A stretch of 64,000 nt of DNA. It comes from an uncultured Opitutia bacterium. Lineage in GTDB: Bacteria > Verrucomicrobiota > Verrucomicrobiia > Opitutales > Opitutaceae. How positions within the stretch are numbered: position 1 is the stretch's first letter; every line of letters starts with the position of its first letter. The translations under genes and the position numbers were made by a program. Below the pieces are notes generated by a model. It did not search any database and had not been told where the DNA came from. It saw only the letters and a program-made list of their open reading frames with translations. Below are positions 11,032-59,232 of the stretch, in pieces. The stretch lies in the NCBI GenBank assembly GCA_903855985.1, contig CAIOAO010000043.1, positions 8,603 to 72,602 of the forward strand. Reading direction: 5' to 3'.

Positions 11032-11107
11032 TGGTGGACCCTAGCGGGTTCGAACCGCTGACCTCCTCAATGCCATTGAGGCGCTCTACCAACTGAGCTA
11101 AGAGCCC
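11032..11107 (-). tRNA. tRNA-Ala (anticodon GGC), CCA encoded
   Basis: Reverse complement is GGGCTCTTAGCTCAGTTGGTAGAGCGCCTCAATGGCATTGAGGAGGTCAGCGGTTCGAACCCGCTAGGGTCCACCA. It folds as a cloverleaf by hand, has the G3:U70 Ala identity pair and anticodon loop ATGGCAT. Confidence 0.92.
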
Positions 11108-20019: not shown

Positions 20020-20110
20020 CACGAAGGAGACGAAACACACGAAAACGTTGCACAGGCAAGGTTCTGAAAATTTTTCGTGTGCTTCGGGTAATTCGTGGTT
20101 TCCTCTCTGT
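20008..20110. repeat. large imperfect palindrome with arms made of three 9-bp periodic units (ACGAA / TTCGK)
   Basis: ACGAA at 20021, 20030, 20039 and TTCGT/TTCGG/TTCGT at 20074, 20083, 20092. The arms continue to TCTCTCTTT / TCCTCTCTGTT. It fills the hydrolase-mutS divergent gap. Confidence 0.8.
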
Positions 20111-20115
20111 TCTTC

Positions 20116-22671
20116 ATGCCGGCCGAGAAACTCACCCCGATGATGCAGCAGTATTTCGAGGTCAAACGCGGGCTGCCGCGCGACACGATCCTGCTCTTCC
20201 GGCTCGGTGACTTCTTCGAGATGTTCTTCGACGACGCCGTGGTCGCGTCACGCCTCCTCGGGTTGACCCTGACAAAGCGCCAGGACCACCCGATGGCGGG
20301 CATCCCGGCCCATTCTTGTGACAATTATGTCACCAAGCTGCTCGCGGCCGGGAAGAAGGTCGCCATCTGCGACCAGGCCGAGACCGCCCAGCCCGGGCGG
20401 CTCGTGAAGCGCCAGCTCACGCGCATCCTTTCGCCCGGCACCACCCTGGCCGCCAACCAACTCGACGCCGCCCGCAACCACTACCTCTGCGCCGTCACCC
20501 TGGATGCCCACGGCCTGCACGCCTCGTGGCTCGACCTCTCCACGGGCGAGTTCCGCATCGCAACCGACACCCACATCGCGAACCTGCTGCCCGTCCTCAC
20601 CGCGCTCGATCCCGCCGAGCTTCTGGTCATTGACGGCGCCCTCGCCCGCTGGGCGGCTGCGCCGCACGAGCAGGTTGAGGTCCACGCCCTGCACGCCTTC
20701 TGCACCTCACGGCTGGTCACGGAGCTGTCGGGCTATCATTTCGAGACCGCCACCGGCGCCAAGACCGTGATGGACACCCTCGGCGTGCTGAACCTGCAGG
20801 GCTTCGGCCTCGTTCATTCCCATCCCGCGCTCGGCCCGGCCGGGGCGCTCGTGTTCTACGCGACGGAAAACCTTTGCGCCAAGCCCGAGAATCTCCGCGG
20901 CCTGCAGGAATACCGCAGCGCCCGCACGCTCCTCCTCGACCCGGCTACGCTGCGCAACCTCGAGATCTTTGCCTCCATCCGCGGCACCCGCGAGGCGTCC
21001 CTGCTCGGCGCCATCAACCGCACCACGACCGCCCCGGGCGCGCGCCTGCTTGAGCGCTGGCTCGCTGCACCGACCCTCGACCTCGCCGAGATCAATCGCC
21101 GGCAATCCCTCGTCGGCGAACTCCTCGCCCAGCCTTCCCGCCTCGCCGCCCTGCGCGAACTGCTGGCGAGCGTCCGCGACATCCCGCGCATCCTCGGCCG
21201 CCTGCAGAACCGTCTCCGGAACCCGCGGGAGCTCGGCGGCGTGCGTGACACCCTCATGCAGATGCCCGCGCTGCAGGCCGAGCTGGCCGGCTTTGGCGGG
21301 ACCCTGGCCACCGGTTACCAGTCTCGACTCAGCGAACTGCCGGCGTTGCGCGACCTGCTCACGCGGGGTCTGGCGGAGGAGCTCCCCAACGACCTTGCTG
21401 AGGGCAATTACATCCGCAGCGGCTACGACCCGCGGCTCGACGAACTTCGCACCCTCACCAGCGGCAACAAGACCTGGCTCTCCGACCTCGAACGCGCCGA
21501 GCAGGAGCGCACCGGCATCCGCAGCCTGAAGGTCCGGTTCACGAACAATTTCGGGTATTACATCGAGGTCACCAAGGCCAATCTGCACCTCGTCCCCGCC
21601 GACTACATCCGCCGGCAGACCACGGTCAGCGGCGAGCGTTACGTCACCGAGGCGCTCAAGGCCAAGGAGAAGGAGATCTTCCACGCCGAGGAAAACGCCC
21701 TCGCCCGCGAGCTGGAGCTCTTCAACGCCCTTGTTGCCGCCATCCTCGATGAGTCCGTCGCCCTCGCCCAGACCGCTGACGCCGTGGCCGAACTCGATGT
21801 GCTCGCCGGCTGGGCCGTGCTCGCCCGCGAATGGAATTATTGCCGGCCCATCCTCGACGAGAGTGATGTCCTCGCCATCACCGAGGGCCGCCACCCCGTG
21901 GTTGAGCAGATGCTCAAGGCCCCCGACGCCGCCCTCGCACGCGGCACCAGCCAGGCGTTTGTGCCCAACGACACGCTGCTCGCGTGCAACGATGCCCAGA
22001 TCGCCCTCATCACCGGTCCCAACATGGCCGGCAAATCCACCTACATCCGCCAGGTCGCGCTGATCACGCTCCTCGCGCAGGTGGGCTGCTGGGTCCCGGC
22101 CAAGGCCTGCCAGGTCGGCCTCGTGGACCGCATCTTCTCCCGCGTCGGCGCCAGCGACGACCTCGCCCGCGGCAACTCGACGTTCATGGTCGAGATGAAC
22201 GAGACCGCCAACATCCTCAACAACGCCACCAGCCGCTCGCTCATCATCCTCGATGAAATCGGTCGCGGCACGTCCACCTATGACGGCCTCTCCATCGCCT
22301 GGGCGGTCGTCGAGCACCTGCACCGCGACGCCGAAGGCGGTCCGCGCACGCTCTTCGCCACGCATTACCAGGAACTCACCCAGCTGGAAAAACACCTGCC
22401 GCGCCTGCGCAATTTCTCCGTCGCCGTGAAGGAATGGAACGACGACATCGTCTTTGTCCGCCGCGTCATCCCCGGCGCCGCCGACCGCAGCTACGGCATC
22501 CAGGTCGCCCGCCTCGCCGGCCTGCCGTTGAGCGTGATTGACCGTGCCAAGACCATCCTCGGCAAGCTGGAGAGCGACGACACGAGTGTGTCCGTGCCTT
22601 CGCCCCAGGCGCGGCCCAAGAAGAAAATCACGGTCGCGCCGGCCGATGATTCGCAGCTTAATTTTCTCTAG
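20116..22671 (+). CDS. mutS: DNA mismatch repair protein MutS
   Basis: MPAEKLTPMMQQYFEVKRG..., Walker A GPNMAGKST, and TFMVEMNETANIL. Confidence 0.95.
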   Translation: MPAEKLTPMMQQYFEVKRGLPRDTILLFRLGDFFEMFFDDAVVASRLLGLTLTKRQDHPMAGIPAHSCDNYVTKLLAAGKKVAICDQAETAQPGRLVKRQLTRILSPGTTLAANQLDAARNHYLCAVTLDAHGLHASWLDLSTGEFRIATDTHIANLLPVLTALDPAELLVIDGALARWAAAPHEQVEVHALHAFCTSRLVTELSGYHFETATGAKTVMDTLGVLNLQGFGLVHSHPALGPAGALVFYATENLCAKPENLRGLQEYRSARTLLLDPATLRNLEIFASIRGTREASLLGAINRTTTAPGARLLERWLAAPTLDLAEINRRQSLVGELLAQPSRLAALRELLASVRDIPRILGRLQNRLRNPRELGGVRDTLMQMPALQAELAGFGGTLATGYQSRLSELPALRDLLTRGLAEELPNDLAEGNYIRSGYDPRLDELRTLTSGNKTWLSDLERAEQERTGIRSLKVRFTNNFGYYIEVTKANLHLVPADYIRRQTTVSGERYVTEALKAKEKEIFHAEENALARELELFNALVAAILDESVALAQTADAVAELDVLAGWAVLAREWNYCRPILDESDVLAITEGRHPVVEQMLKAPDAALARGTSQAFVPNDTLLACNDAQIALITGPNMAGKSTYIRQVALITLLAQVGCWVPAKACQVGLVDRIFSRVGASDDLARGNSTFMVEMNETANILNNATSRSLIILDEIGRGTSTYDGLSIAWAVVEHLHRDAEGGPRTLFATHYQELTQLEKHLPRLRNFSVAVKEWNDDIVFVRRVIPGAADRSYGIQVARLAGLPLSVIDRAKTILGKLESDDTSVSVPSPQARPKKKITVAPADDSQLNFL

Positions 22672-22684
22672 TTCGCCGCGTGCC

Positions 22685-22945
22685 ATGGTCTCCCCGTACC
22701 ATCCTTCACCGGGTGATGAAAACGCTCCCACCAACGTTCTCCTGCTGGCGGCCAAGGCCGATCCTTCATTCGGTGAGGAGCTGAGAAATATCCTCCGCCT
22801 GCCGGGCATCCAGCGTCGCGCGATGATCAACTCCGCGCTGGAGGCGATGCGAATCCAGCGCGCGGACCCGTTGCTGGTCCAGGCGGTGGCGTTGCTCGCC
22901 GATGACGCCGGCGTCGCCAGAATGCGCGAGCTGCTCCAGTCGTAG
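22685..22945 (+). CDS. hypothetical small protein (86 aa)
   Basis: Internal ATG of ORF 22538..22945, 14 nt after the mutS stop. Codon usage looks native. No motif recognised. Confidence 0.4.
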   Translation: MVSPYHPSPGDENAPTNVLLLAAKADPSFGEELRNILRLPGIQRRAMINSALEAMRIQRADPLLVQAVALLADDAGVARMRELLQS

Positions 22946-22992
22946 CATTCCACACCGCAGTGGGTCGGACCATGCGTCCGACGAGTCCGGGG

Positions 22993-24033
22993 TCAGGACG
23001 CCGTGCTGTGGCGCAGGGTCCACAGCTGCTTGGCCTGCTTGATGATCGCGGCCAGCACATCGGGCGTCACCGCCTGCTTCGGATCGTCACCGATGCCGTG
23101 GCTCGGGCTGACGTGCGACTCGATGCAGAGTCCGTCCGCGCCGTACGCCACGGCCGCGAGCGCGCAGGCGGGAACGTAGACGGCCTTGCCGACCGAGTGG
23201 GACGGATCGATTACGACCGGCGCCCAGGTCTTCTCCTTGAGCAGCGGCGTGATGCTTTCGTCGGGATGGTTGCGGTAGCCGTCGAGTGTCGGCGAGGTGC
23301 CGCGCGGACAGAGGATGACGTTCGGGTTGCCAAACGCCGCGATGTATTCCGCCGCCGAAATGAACTCCGCCAGCGACCCCATGTGGATGCTGCGCTTGAG
23401 CAGCACGCAGGTGTCCTTTTCCGCGATCGCCCGGCCGATGGACCGCAGCAGCGAGTAGTTGAGCGCATTGCGCGCGCCGACCTGCAGCGAGTGCACGCCC
23501 GCATCGAGGGCGAGCTTGATGTGGCTGTCCTCCATCACCTCGGTGTCCACCGGCAGGCCCGTGCGGCGCGAGGCCTCCATCAGGATATCCAGCGACTTCA
23601 CGTCGCCCTGGAACGCATAGGGATTCGTCCGCGGCTTCCACACGCCGCCGCGCAACACATGGGCGCCGGCTTCCTTCACCGCCGCGGCGGTCTCGTAGAA
23701 ATAGTTGGGGTTCTTCGGGTCAATCGTGCACGCGCCCGCGATGACCAGCAGTTCCTCGCCCAGCGTCACCCCGCCGAGTTGGAGGCGGTGGCTCGCGAGG
23801 TCAGACCGCTTGTCCATCAGCTTGAACGGCGACTGGATCCGGTCGATGCGGTCCACGTACGCTAGGCCCTCGAGCCGGTTGATCATCAGCTCGTCGCGCT
23901 CGTCGCCCACGATCGCGTAGATCGTCCGCACGGCCCCGATGATGGGTTGGATCTTGCAGCCGAACTCGCCGACGATCGCGGTGATTTCGGTCAGTTGCTC
24001 AGCGGTGAGACGGTTCGTTTTGGGGAGGATCAT
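22993..24033 (-). CDS. 3-deoxy-7-phosphoheptulonate (DAHP) synthase, type I-beta with N-terminal regulatory domain
   Basis: 346 aa. ...IAGACTIDPKNP...AGAHVLRGGVWKPRTNPYAFQG... has KDO8P/DAHP type I-beta architecture, preceded by a ~80 aa ferredoxin-like domain. Confidence 0.9.
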   Translation of the reverse strand: MILPKTNRLTAEQLTEITAIVGEFGCKIQPIIGAVRTIYAIVGDERDELMINRLEGLAYVDRIDRIQSPFKLMDKRSDLASHRLQLGGVTLGEELLVIAGACTIDPKNPNYFYETAAAVKEAGAHVLRGGVWKPRTNPYAFQGDVKSLDILMEASRRTGLPVDTEVMEDSHIKLALDAGVHSLQVGARNALNYSLLRSIGRAIAEKDTCVLLKRSIHMGSLAEFISAAEYIAAFGNPNVILCPRGTSPTLDGYRNHPDESITPLLKEKTWAPVVIDPSHSVGKAVYVPACALAAVAYGADGLCIESHVSPSHGIGDDPKQAVTPDVLAAIIKQAKQLWTLRHSTAS

Positions 24034-24053
24034 GACGGAGACGTTTCGAGGTT

Positions 24054-24084
24054 AACAAAAAAGCCGCCCGGGAGGGGGCGGCTT
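24054..24084 (-). terminator. intrinsic terminator about 20 nt upstream of the DAHP synthase ATG (candidate attenuator terminator)
   Basis: Reverse strand reads AAGCCGCCC-CCTCCC-GGGCGGCTT-TTTTGTT. Confidence 0.7.
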
Positions 24085-24106
24085 GTTTTGCGAAATTGGG
24101 GTGGAC

Positions 24107-24193
24107 TCAGTTTTCGCGACAGCCGCCGTGGTTTTTCCGGGTAAAATACCCCCGGAAAGCGAAGCTAAAGTAATAGGCGCTGAAGCAGTTCAC
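24107..24193 (-). CDS. candidate leader peptide, Phe/Tyr-rich (28 codons)
   Basis: My translation from GTG at 24193 is (M)NCFSAYYFSFAFRGYFTRKNHGGCREN-stop. Eight of fourteen consecutive codons are Phe or Tyr. An alternative TTG start lies at 24229. Confidence 0.55.
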   Translation of the reverse strand: MNCFSAYYFSFAFRGYFTRKNHGGCREN

Positions 24194-24243
24194 GGCCGAA
24201 GCAGTGCCTGCGGGCCCAGTTCTTGTCAATCCTGCGGCCCACC

Positions 24244-25008
24244 CTACAGCACCGCCGTGAATTCCGCCGGCAGCGGCGCCGACGCAGCAAAGCGGTACGG
24301 CTTGCCGTTGAACTCATACTCAAACGCCGTCTCGAACGAATGGAGGAACATCCGCTTCGTCTTCACCGCCTTCGCGTACTCCCGGTTGCGCGGAAAGTTT
24401 CCGTAGGTCTGGTCGCCCACGATCGGCATGCCGCGCTTGGCGCACTGGGCGCGAAGCTGGTGGCTCCGGCCGGTGTGCGGTTCGAGGCGCAGGAGCGACA
24501 CCCGCGGCTCGCCCCGGCCCGTGCGGACCAGGCTCATCTTGCACTCGGCCGGCACCCGTCCTGTGCCCAGCGCGGCGCGGACCTGCCCGCCCTTCTTCAC
24601 CACAGCCAGGGTGTCCTTCCACAATTCGACCGGCGGACGCGGCGTGCCAAACACCAGCGCCTGGTAAACTTTTTTCACCTGCTTCCGCTTGAACTGCGCC
24701 CGGATCTCCTGCGCCAGCTTCTCGTCCGCGGCGGCAAGCACCACGCCCGAGGTGGCGGAGTCGAGCCGGTTGAGCAGCCAGAGTTTCAGCAGGGGCCCAC
24801 CCTTCACCGGCGTCCATTGGAAAAACTCTCCTTCCAGCATGTAGCGCACGGTCAGGAGCGAGCGGGGCTCATCCCCGCCGGCGTTGGGATGCGAGAGCAC
24901 GCCCGCGGGCTTGTCGAACGCCACCAGCCCGTTGGCATCCTGCGCAATCAATGTCACTCCGCGGCCGAGCGGCAATTCCGCCCAGAAGCTCTCCGACACC
25001 GCGCTCAC
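24244..25008 (-). CDS. RluA-family pseudouridine synthase
   Basis: NRLDSATSGVVLAA and HTGRSHQLRAQCA motifs. The GTG at 25008 overlaps the upstream stop as GTGA. Confidence 0.8.
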   Translation of the reverse strand: MSAVSESFWAELPLGRGVTLIAQDANGLVAFDKPAGVLSHPNAGGDEPRSLLTVRYMLEGEFFQWTPVKGGPLLKLWLLNRLDSATSGVVLAAADEKLAQEIRAQFKRKQVKKVYQALVFGTPRPPVELWKDTLAVVKKGGQVRAALGTGRVPAECKMSLVRTGRGEPRVSLLRLEPHTGRSHQLRAQCAKRGMPIVGDQTYGNFPRNREYAKAVKTKRMFLHSFETAFEYEFNGKPYRFAASAPLPAEFTAVL

Positions 25009-26117
25009 CGGTAGAAAAACTCGTAGGTCAGCTCCTGCTCCTTGCCGAGCATCGCCTTCATGTCGTCCGTCCACGGACCGTAGGGTGACGGGATCGTGAT
25101 GGCGCTGGTGCAGAGGCGGGCCGCGGCGTCGGTGGCCTTGTTCTCGACGCTGATGATGCGGGCGATCTGGCCCTCCTCGTTGAGGATGAACTTCACGATG
25201 ACGATGCTGCCGGACGGCGGATAGATCCGGCTCTCGTCGTTCAGCCGGTCGAACTGCACCTGCACGATCTCCACCATCTTCTGGAGGTACGCGCCATAAT
25301 TGCTGAACTCCGCGCTGACGCCGATGAGGCCGGTATTCTGCGTGCCGACCTTGTTTTCAGCAAAAATCGCGGGGCGGGCCTGGATCGACTTCACGATCTG
25401 CGGCCGGGCGCGCGGATGATGCGGGTCAATGGAGGGCTGCAGGTCCGTGGCACCCTCGATGAGCGGCACGTTTTTCAGGCCGTCGATCTTGTTGGGGACG
25501 TCCTTGGGCGCATCGGACGGACTCGCGATATTGGTACCGTAGCCGCCGTCCGCGGCGCCGATTTTCTTCTCGAAGCCGCTCAAGGGGGTCTGCTCCTGCC
25601 GGGGGGCGGTCAACTTGGACTCGGTCGGCGACACGGGGCTCGGCGGGACCGGGGTCTGTTCCACCGGCTTCTGGAGCTGACCTGAAACGATCTGCGTGGA
25701 ATGGAGATCCTTCTCCCCTTCCATCGCCGGCCGGTCGCTCTTGCCGTTGGGCGTGGGTTTCTCCTGCGCGACCTGCTGGTTGCGGGAGGCGAAATTGTTG
25801 GTCTTGTCCGGCACATCCTCCGGCTTGTCGGGGTTGGTCTCGACAAACTGCTTGGGCATCCGCGGCTTCGCCGGCGGTTTGTACATCTCCGGCGCGAGCT
25901 GGATGCTGAACTGACGCGGTCGCGCGTGCGGGCGGACCAGCGCCGGCGTCGGATCGTTGCGCAGCAGGACCGGACCGATGAACATCAGCAGCAGGTGGAC
26001 GAGGATCGTGCCCACGATGCCAATCAGGATGGAGCGCGACTCCGGTTCCTCCCACATGCGCGCGAGGGCGCGCCGCACGGTGTGCGAAAGAGGAGGTGTG
26101 ACAATGGTTTGGCTCAT
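25005..26117 (-). CDS. TonB-like membrane-anchored protein (N-terminal TM, Pro-rich linker, TonB_C-like end)
   Basis: ORF 25005..26162 with ATG at 26117 (MSQTIV...). Architecture only; no specific family recognised. Confidence 0.55.
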   Translation of the reverse strand: MSQTIVTPPLSHTVRRALARMWEEPESRSILIGIVGTILVHLLLMFIGPVLLRNDPTPALVRPHARPRQFSIQLAPEMYKPPAKPRMPKQFVETNPDKPEDVPDKTNNFASRNQQVAQEKPTPNGKSDRPAMEGEKDLHSTQIVSGQLQKPVEQTPVPPSPVSPTESKLTAPRQEQTPLSGFEKKIGAADGGYGTNIASPSDAPKDVPNKIDGLKNVPLIEGATDLQPSIDPHHPRARPQIVKSIQARPAIFAENKVGTQNTGLIGVSAEFSNYGAYLQKMVEIVQVQFDRLNDESRIYPPSGSIVIVKFILNEEGQIARIISVENKATDAAARLCTSAITIPSPYGPWTDDMKAMLGKEQELTYEFFYR

Positions 26118-50089: not shown

Positions 50090-50536
50090 TTAGCGCAGCA
50101 CACCCTGCCGGCGCAGGGCGCGGGCGTAGATGAAGAGCAGGTAGCCGACGACGAAGATGACGGTGCTGAAGATCAGCGGGCCGACACCACCCATCACTTT
50201 CAGGCCGTTGGACAGGCCGAAGTTGTGGATCGTCGTGAGCACCATGCCGAGAAAGGAGACGAGAAAGACGGGCATTGCCACGCCCTTGCGGAGCAACAGC
50301 AGCAGCGAACCCAGCGCTCCGCCCCAGGTCGCAATCCCCCACGCAGCCACCACCCAGAACGGAAAACCGTAGAAAAAATCCAGCTGGGCCGGCGTGAAGG
50401 CCTGCATGTACGCCGCGTTGCGGGTCTGCGTCATGTAGAAATCAAACGCGCCCACGAGATTCCACAGCAGGGAAATCACGCCCACCACCCAGAGATGCCA
50501 TGGTGCCTTGGTCGCAGCGGGCGGGGTCGTAGCCAT
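50090..50536 (-). CDS. hypothetical membrane protein (4 TM)
   Basis: 148 aa, ATG start, hydrophobic throughout. Confidence 0.6.
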   Translation of the reverse strand: MATTPPAATKAPWHLWVVGVISLLWNLVGAFDFYMTQTRNAAYMQAFTPAQLDFFYGFPFWVVAAWGIATWGGALGSLLLLLRKGVAMPVFLVSFLGMVLTTIHNFGLSNGLKVMGGVGPLIFSTVIFVVGYLLFIYARALRRQGVLR

Positions 50537-58578: not shown

Positions 58579-59232
58579 ATGAGTAATCCCGTGCCCGCCT
58601 ACCCCGCGGATGTGGCCAGGAAGCCCAACCTGGTACTCCTGCTCGCCTGGACCGCCGTGCTCACCCTGATTGCGTATTTTGTCTGGAAATATGCGCTGCA
58701 CTATTTCGTTTTCACTCCCCAGTCCTACGGCACTTATTTCTGGCCCCGCATCTCGTGGGTGGTCCCGCATGTGGCGGCGGGACTGGTGGCGATCTTGATC
58801 GGACCGCTGCAATTCTGGCCGCGCGTGCGCCGCGACCACCTGGCGTTCCACCGGATCGCCGGGCGGGTCTATGTGACCGTCGTACTGGTCGGCGCCATCG
58901 CCGCCCTCGGGCTGGCCGCGAAGATTGACAGCGGACCGGCCTATGCCCTTGGACTGGCCGGGCTGGCGGTGGCGTGGCTGACGACGACCGGGATGGCCTT
59001 CGTTGCGATCCGCCGGAAGAACGTGGAGCAGCACCGGCAATGGATGATCCGCAGCTATGTCGTCACGTTTGCCTTTGTCACTTTCAGGCTGTGCGACGAC
59101 GCGATGCACCGGCTGCAGATCCTGTCCGATGATGAGCGGTCAAAAGTCCTGGCCTGGGCCTGTTGGGCCATTCCTCTGCTGGTGACTGAGCTCATCCTCC
59201 AGAGCCGGGCGGTCCTCAAAACCCGCGGCTGA
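58579..59232 (+). CDS. DUF2306 membrane protein
   Basis: ATG at 58579. HVAAGLVAILIGPLQFWPRVRRDHLAFHRIAGRVY. Confidence 0.65.
   Translation: MSNPVPAYPADVARKPNLVLLLAWTAVLTLIAYFVWKYALHYFVFTPQSYGTYFWPRISWVVPHVAAGLVAILIGPLQFWPRVRRDHLAFHRIAGRVYVTVVLVGAIAALGLAAKIDSGPAYALGLAGLAVAWLTTTGMAFVAIRRKNVEQHRQWMIRSYVVTFAFVTFRLCDDAMHRLQILSDDERSKVLAWACWAIPLLVTELILQSRAVLKTRG

Follow-up and report, generated by a model that had tools for sequence, protein, structure and literature searches.

What does an intrinsic terminator do when it stands directly in front of a biosynthetic gene? This question is raised by a stretch of 64,000 nucleotides (nt) of DNA from an uncultured Opitutia bacterium, hereafter called the window (always the whole stretch analyzed). 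A scan of both strands with strict criteria (a U-rich tail after a perfect stem that has 7 or more pairs, including 5 or more G-C pairs) found a single canonical intrinsic terminator, at 24061-24084, and it is located 5′ of a gene, not 3′ of one. The gene encodes DAHP synthase, the first enzyme of the aromatic amino acid pathway, and a short reading frame crowded with Phe and Tyr codons lies just upstream of the terminator. Our analysis indicates that frame and terminator are very probably parts of a ribosome-mediated (leader-peptide) transcription attenuator controlling the DAHP synthase gene, a conclusion drawn from comparative sequence analysis and predicted RNA folds. From the same sequences we infer that the attenuator would respond to amino acid supply.

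Relatives of the locus were collected in two ways. A protein search with the DAHP synthase, keeping one genome per species, returned 80 loci from Opitutaceae or other Verrucomicrobiota with 83-98% protein identity. The leader element was present in 18 of these loci (in one it is cut by the contig end) and absent from the other 62, so that 19 of 81 genome sequences carried it when the window was counted. A DNA pattern made from the conserved core of the element matched 17 metagenome contigs, 14 of which were true matches, each directly 5′ of a DAHP synthase start (ATGATCCTCCC); the matches in L083, L088 and L093 were unrelated sequences and were discarded. After removal of duplicates, 28 distinct versions remained in alignment A1: the window, 17 Opitutaceae genomes and 10 metagenome contigs. 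All 28 are directly 5′ of the DAHP synthase ATG; each locus has a single copy, as does the window. In the 28 sequences, to which the counts below refer, the same set of features was kept together: the reading frame with its aromatic content, a hairpin called P1, the motif GGCGGCU and the terminator, along with their spacing.

The aromatic block of the leader frame stands out from its surroundings. In the window, the segment FSAYYFSFAFRGYF has 8 aromatic residues in 14 codons and was the richest of approximately 100,000 stop-free 14-codon segments in the six frames; aromatic codons account for 8 of the 28 codons of the leader versus 6.3% in six neighboring genes. An earlier interpretation made from the letters of the window (hereafter the sequence-only reading) had pointed to this frame and its 8 Phe/Tyr codons out of 14, and the frame is present as it was described. 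In the alignment, where the G of GTG is nt 1 of the transcript, the GTG start is invariant and frame 0 is open in all 28 sequences, without any insertion or deletion from GTG to stop, versus many just after the stop. Stop codons interrupt frame 1 in all 28 sequences and frame 2 in seven. For the leader stop, two positions occur: nt 85 (22 sequences) and nt 73 (six sequences). Frame 0 has 7-9 aromatic codons per sequence (mean 8.07); the corresponding means for the other two frames are 0.96 and 4.04. These codons are confined to codons 2-18, and the last one is codon 17 or 18 in every sequence, ending at nt 51 or 54.

Variation at the aromatic positions consists of TTT/TTC and TAT/TAC changes and of exchanges between Phe and Tyr, and the third base of the TTN and TAN codons is always a pyrimidine and never a purine. 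Outside P1 the leader peptide is loosely conserved and the aromatic count is maintained. U-ending codons are over-represented relative to the neighboring genes: the ratio of TTT to TTC was 70:76 in the leaders versus 21:62 in the neighbors, and that of TAT to TAC was 41:21 versus 15:45. A Phe/Tyr-only leader, as the sequence-only reading had it, is correct for the window, where codon 14 is CGG (Arg), but not for the family. Trp (TGG) occurs in 18 of the 28 sequences, mostly at codon 14, where the C/U exchange also keeps a P1 pair; judged by its codons, the leader of the whole family is therefore of the Phe/Tyr/Trp type.

Two hairpins of the leader are supported by covariation. P1, which lies inside the frame, is paired in 92.9% of cells, and three of its eight pairs are changed on both sides (UA/CG/GC, CG/UA and UG/CG/GC). 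The terminator is paired in 98% of cells, has two co-varying pairs (AU/GC and CG/UA) and is followed by an invariant T tract; a consensus scan described it as 9 pairs (7 of them G-C) with a 6-nt loop and then the U tract. P1 and the terminator together are 95.6% paired, their covariation score was matched by none of 500 shuffles, and RNAalifold recovered both helices. Both structures had been noticed before the alignment was available, the first as a hairpin within the frame and the second as a strong terminator shortly before the ATG, and both hold. From the end of the T tract to the DAHP synthase ATG there are 23 nt. A tract of A residues 5′ of the terminator hairpin gives it a bidirectional look.

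The structure that would compete with the terminator is composed of two helices, an outer one (GGCGGCU:AGCCGCC) and an inner one (GCGAAA:UUUCGC). The sequence-only reading had proposed the outer pairing as the antiterminator. This pairing is indeed conserved, as region 2, the GGCGGCU segment whose sequence is identical to the terminator 3′ arm, pairs with AGCCGCC in 97% of cells; the proposal was incomplete in that the inner helix is also involved. The inner helix is paired in 86% of cells and has a loop that is variable in length and sequence. The whole antiterminator was 92.3% paired, versus 36-54% when the partners were slid by 1-3 columns. When the RNA was folded from the end of P1 to the end of the terminator 5′ arm, the two-helix antiterminator was the minimum-energy fold in 28 of 28 sequences. 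The mean predicted energy was -20.7 kcal/mol for the antiterminator versus -17.3 kcal/mol for the terminator hairpin; the mean z of the antiterminator relative to shuffled upstream segments was -3.8. Region 2 shows little or no variation, and the wobble bases of its two GGC codons never vary. In six relatives the stop codon overlaps region 2 (GGCGGCTGA), and in the six sequences where this earlier stop (GGCGGCUGA) leaves the CGCGAA..CUGA segment untranslated, the segment is unchanged. The divergent pairs L057/L065 and L076/L077 retain the antiterminator by means of different pairings.

The position of the stop codon relative to these helices fits ribosome-mediated attenuation, in agreement with the contrast between stalled and terminating ribosomes drawn in the sequence-only reading. 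In the window leader, the aromatic codons occupy nt 10-51, P1 nt 36-60, region 2 nt 67-73 and the stop codon nt 85-87, followed by the terminator 5′ arm (region 3, nt 111-117), its 3′ arm (region 4, nt 125-133), the end of the U tract at nt 137 and the AUG at nt 161. The stop codon (nt 73-75 or 85-87) falls inside the 5′ strand of the antiterminator or shortly behind it in all sequences, i.e. within region 2 or 12 nt beyond it. When the bases under a ribosome at the stop codon were kept unpaired in the fold prediction, only the terminator remained; when the A site was placed at codon 13, the antiterminator was part of the minimum-energy fold. One masked fold of the window also paired the P1 3′ arm, once freed, with CCGGG of the terminator loop and arm; this pairing was dropped, as its complement is not conserved in the relatives.

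Taken as a mechanism, these features suggest the following sequence of events. Transcription would start from a promoter with the TTGACA box, probably at the GTG or within a base or two of it, and translation of the leader would be leaderless. The ribosome would then translate the frame of 24-28 codons; between codons 2 and 18 it would meet 7-9 that specify Phe, Tyr or (in most relatives) Trp. If charged aromatic tRNAs are plentiful, the ribosome would reach the stop codon, on GGCGGCUGA or 12 nt further, and would cover both GGCGGCU and GCGAAA, the 5′ strands of the antiterminator; AGCCGCC, thus freed, would pair with GGGCGGCUU, and transcription would end at the U tract, 23 nt before the ATG. 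If Phe- or Tyr-tRNA is scarce, the ribosome would stall within codons 4-17 with its front edge short of GGCGGCU, the two-helix antiterminator would form as soon as AGCCGCC has been made, and in the absence of the terminator the polymerase would read through into the DAHP synthase gene. The terminated product is predicted to be approximately 135 nt long and to end near 24057. The model also predicts that compensatory changes in AGCCGCC and GGGCGGCU would restore the regulation that changes in GGCGGCU have broken.

Coordinates of the leader element and of the adjoining genes (positions in the window)
Feature	Position	Strand	Remarks
RluA-family pseudouridine synthase gene	24244..25074	-	Upstream neighbor; Pfam PF00849 (PseudoU_synth_2); not a component of the switch
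Stop codon of RluA-family gene	24246-24244	-	TAG; strand read directly
TTGACA	24224..24229	-	Probable -35 box of the leader/DAHP synthase promoter; putative promoter function
Leader reading frame	24107..24193	-	GTG 24193-24191, 28 codons, TGA 24109-24107; peptide MNCFSAYYFSFAFRGYFTRKNHGGCREN
Regulatory block, codons 4-17	24143..24184	-	5 Phe and 3 Tyr codons
Hairpin P1	24134..24158	-	TTTCCGGG 24158-24151 / CCCGGAAA 24141-24134
P1 loop		-	Contains the Tyr16 and Phe17 codons
Region 2 (GGCGGCTG)	24120..24127	-	5′ strand of the antiterminator outer helix; GGCGGCT = 24127-24121
Inner antiterminator helix	24090..24117	-	GCGAAA 24117-24112 : TTTCGC 24095-24090; loop holds the leader stop 24109-24107
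Intrinsic terminator (regions 3 and 4)	24057..24084	-	AAGCCGCCC 24084-24076, CCTCCC, GGGCGGCTT 24069-24061, T's to 24057
Class I-beta DAHP synthase gene	22993..24033	-	N-terminal ferredoxin-like regulatory domain; ATG 24033; proposed regulated gene

The promoter was assigned by conservation. TTGACA is invariant in all 28 sequences, and its distance from the GTG is fixed at 30 nt, or 31 nt in three of them. The intervening bases are poorly conserved, save for a C-A and a T located seven bases ahead of the GTG. The position of TTGACA is kept in three contexts: with the rluA stop codon 15 nt upstream, behind a long palindromic insert, and where rluA is absent or replaced by a different gene. A scan for the sigma-70 consensus found no promoter in 22500-25500, so the promoter call is based only on the invariant TTGACA and its fixed spacing. 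This fixed spacing suggests that the transcript begins at or next to the GUG and that the leader peptide is leaderless, with the start site placed from sequence. The segment between the terminator and the ATG consists of 23 variable, G-poor bases without any promoter-like match, in line with the earlier statement that no room is left for a promoter after the terminator. This segment (24034-24056) and its equivalents in 27 relatives are C/A-rich and almost free of G, and no Shine-Dalgarno motif was found in any of the 28, which suggests Shine-Dalgarno-independent initiation in this lineage.

Several observations weigh against a ribosome-mediated attenuator. Of the 81 related genome sequences, 62 lack the element, among them some very close relatives (such as L003 and L006). 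The putative -10 region is weak, and neither the GTG start nor the DAHP synthase ATG is preceded by a Shine-Dalgarno motif. When the A site was placed at codon 9 or 17 and the full-length leader was folded, the equilibrium fold still showed the terminator, which implies that antitermination must be kinetic, as in classical attenuators. The outer helix of the antiterminator is almost invariant, and its covariation measures did not exceed those of shuffled alignments (56 and 45 of 500 shuffles reached the observed values). The antiterminator is therefore supported by conservation and energy and not by covariation, which for the outer helix speaks neither for nor against it. The invariance is informative in its own right: AGCCGCC must pair with two partners. 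Finally, region 2 can pair with varying 5′ segments of the frame in all 28 sequences, but the same was true of 63% of the shuffled controls; since the controls did nearly as well, we do not claim a trp-like 1:2 anti-antiterminator. Without a 1:2 stem, an untranslated leader may default to read-through, and the attenuator would need tight coupling of transcription and translation. Termination would then depend on a closely following ribosome, which would give P1 an obvious role: it is possibly a pause hairpin that holds RNA polymerase until the ribosome arrives.

Could the hairpin simply be the terminator of the upstream rluA unit, with a fortuitous aromatic frame and a separate promoter for the DAHP synthase gene? 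There is no terminator between rluA and the leader in the window, and the two genes adjoin in most relatives, as this explanation would have it. However, the 23 variable, G-poor bases after the T tract leave such a promoter no recognizable place, leader-less relatives have no terminator after rluA, and the frame and its aromatic content are conserved in 28 of 28 sequences. In addition, leader and DAHP synthase gene remain together even if rluA is missing (L057 and L065) or is set apart by long palindromic inserts. We consider this explanation hardly credible. An RNA that works without translation deserves slightly more attention, either as an attenuator switched by a protein or ligand that recognizes the U-rich segment and P1, or as a stand-alone small RNA. 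Nucleotide-level conservation extends over P1, region 2 and the inner helix and includes wobble positions and the bases past the early stop, and the terminated product of approximately 135 nt could act in trans, as the rnTrpL RNA of Sinorhizobium is reported to do. Yet the U-rich segment varies as codons do: its aromatic codons are phase-specific and interchange between Phe and Tyr, third bases are only pyrimidines, the start is invariant, and the frame is open and free of indels. The predicted structures are simple hairpins without a conserved junction or pocket, and no Rfam family matched above threshold. A translation-independent RNA is thus quite unlikely.

The same nucleotide constraints bear on the idea that the translated peptide itself is active, as a TnaC-like arrest peptide sensing free aromatic amino acids or as a functional small hydrophobic protein, in either case without sensing tRNA charging. 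Its core, F-x-F-(R/W)-G-Y-F-T-R-K, is fairly well conserved, and leader peptides acting in trans exist, as reported for peTrpL. However, the core mostly overlaps P1, so that nucleotide constraints explain its conservation, and outside it the number of aromatic codons is kept but not their position. The four C-terminal residues are dispensable, since six relatives have the earlier stop. A stop codon on the antiterminator and the lack of aromatics past codon 18 are predictions of a sensor of tRNA charging and are not required by an arrest peptide. An active peptide is therefore very unlikely, and ribosome-mediated attenuation remains our preferred explanation.

A more specific version of the attenuator can be put forward only tentatively, as the conjunction of its parts is possible but doubtful: an attenuator that evolved independently, starts with a leaderless GUG, reads the charging of Phe, Tyr and, in most members, Trp tRNAs to govern entry into the shikimate pathway, is ON by default, and has been gained or lost repeatedly. 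The default-ON part is suggested by the predicted stability of the antiterminator, which equals or exceeds that of the terminator, and by the lack of an established 1:2 stem. Under this version, termination would occur only with a ribosome parked at the stop codon, and repeated gain or loss would have taken place among close relatives, many of which have the repeat GGAAT-N5-GGAAT before the same gene instead.

The distribution of the element was compared with the relationships of the enzyme. In a neighbor-joining tree of the DAHP synthase proteins, the 19 carriers fell into several groups and were interleaved with non-carriers. Carriers are known from freshwater and soil Verrucomicrobia, and most carriers among the Opitutaceae are known only from metagenomes. 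A search of the 62 leader-less loci found no other aromatic-rich upstream frame. The synteny of rluA with the DAHP synthase gene was seen in most relatives whether the leader was present or not; in L057 and L065, rluA is absent upstream, yet the leader is present. Together with the varied types of upstream region described below, the interleaving of carriers and non-carriers indicates that the regulatory region of the DAHP synthase gene turns over quickly.

The upstream regions of the relatives differed in further ways. In nine carriers (L005, L007, L058, L076, L082, L085, L090, L092 and L096), 100-210 nt lie between the rluA stop and TTGACA, and these intergenic segments contain long, near-perfect palindromes that fold with -44 to -120 kcal/mol and have the look of repetitive extragenic palindromic (REP) or miniature inverted-repeat transposable element (MITE) sequences. 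The palindromic inserts part rluA from the leader promoter and leave the TTGACA-N30-GTG module undisturbed. In leader-less relatives (L008, L009, L014, L019, L025, L028, L033, L041, L056, L069 and others), the end of rluA reads ...GAGAAGTTCCTTTGACAGG, with the rluA stop codon inside a TTGACA, and most of them have the direct repeat GGAAT-N5-GGAAT 15-40 nt before the DAHP synthase ATG. This repeat might serve as an operator or promoter, placing the DAHP synthase gene under a different kind of control by a protein. A third type of upstream region, found in L010, L011, L024, L029, L031, L035 and L047, has a conserved TGTCCATTT ... CTAAAT with a promoter-like look.

Is such a device new? The sequence-only reading had regarded attenuation by aromatic codons as undescribed for a DAHP synthase gene or for a high-GC lineage, a statement that does not hold. 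In the closest described system, that of Corynebacterium glutamicum, the leader peptide aroR, with the residues Phe-Tyr-Phe, attenuates aroF (Neshat et al. 2014, as described in PMC11802643 and PMC4046766). That system resembles the present one in that a leader with Phe and Tyr codons precedes a DAHP synthase gene, ribosome stalling raises transcription and the organism has a high GC content. It differs in belonging to the Actinomycetota and in having a single Phe-Tyr-Phe triplet, whereas the aromatic codons of the leader here number 7-9 and are dispersed, and many relatives also have Trp. By analogy, we regard aroR-aroF as a functional analogue and make no claim of homology. The enzymes also seem to differ: C. 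glutamicum aroF (cg1129) is presumably of a different DAHP synthase subclass and not of the I-beta type with a ferredoxin-like domain, to which the window gene was assigned by matches to PF00793 (DAHP_synth_1, 1.4e-40) and PF18152 (DAHP_snth_FXD, 3.8e-8). For E. coli aroF, a passage of PMC2659441 mentions an older suggestion of control dependent on tyrosyl-tRNA.

Classical attenuators provide further points of comparison. The pheL-pheA leader of E. coli (Rfam RF01859, Phe_leader) likewise has an aromatic-rich peptide (7 Phe in 15), alternative hairpins and a terminator before an aromatic-pathway gene, but the enzyme it regulates belongs to a terminal branch and its aromatic codons are Phe only. 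Membership in RF01859 was rejected, as the scores were 18.4 and 20.2 bits versus a gathering score of 55 and only the terminator aligned. Matches to Thr_leader and to some small-RNA models were likewise rejected as terminator-level matches (17-20 bits for Phe_leader and Thr_leader). Besides such terminator-only matches, no riboswitch or T-box matched in Rfam at E-values up to 10, and at gathering thresholds no Rfam family matched the leader element in a search of the whole window. As in trpL of E. coli, a stalled ribosome would free segment 2 for 2:3 pairing, a ribosome at the stop codon would mask segment 2 so that the 3:4 hairpin terminates transcription, and the coding region contains a hairpin that could serve as a pause signal. 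In trp, however, 1:2 pairing makes an untranslated leader terminate, whereas in the present leader P1 and region 2 do not overlap and a 1:2 pairing is not claimed. Another difference from trpL is that the antiterminator of the verrucomicrobial leader has a predicted stability no lower than that of the terminator.

The leaderless arrangement also has a counterpart. In Deinococcus deserti, leader peptides are translated from transcripts that start at the AUG or GUG or one base before it, with start sites mapped by differential RNA-seq (in the portion of PMC4007540 drawn on here). The TTGACA-N30-GTG spacing and the missing Shine-Dalgarno motif suggest the same arrangement for the present leader; the start sites were mapped in D. 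deserti and deduced from spacing here, and the portion of PMC4007540 cited contains no aromatic-pathway example. A full-text literature search returned no report of leader-peptide attenuation in Verrucomicrobia. The leader is thus a known kind of device with a published analogue for the same enzyme, and the class of mechanism is not new; for the Verrucomicrobiota, we found no such report.

To our knowledge, gene regulation in the Verrucomicrobiota is almost uncharted, and a conserved leader-peptide attenuator would have several implications for this phylum. It would imply coupling of transcription and translation as well as working canonical intrinsic terminators, though the single strict terminator in 64 kb suggests that these are rare in the source genome. 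It would also suggest that tRNA charging, along with the allosteric domain of the enzyme, determines how much flux enters the shikimate pathway. Class I-beta DAHP synthases of the Thermotoga maritima type, which have the ferredoxin-like domain, are reportedly feedback-inhibited by Tyr and Phe; if this applies here, an enzyme-level layer would be added to the same control. The leader may be viewed as a compact natural sensor of aromatic tRNA charging, with a leaderless GUG start, a mixed Phe/Tyr/Trp content and possibly a default-ON architecture as its notable traits. It would also be a clean case of regulatory turnover, in which close relatives run the same gene with or without the switch.

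Some observations concern other parts of the window. A long open reading frame at 20095-22671 (+), MutS-like by eye, converges on the end of the DAHP synthase gene, so control by the attenuator appears to be limited to one gene. Seven aromatic residues in 14 codons occur in just two other stretches, 58672-58743 (+) and 50336-50380 (-), at positions unrelated to the leader. A tRNA gene at 11035-11107 (-) is the sole Rfam match in the window at the gathering threshold.

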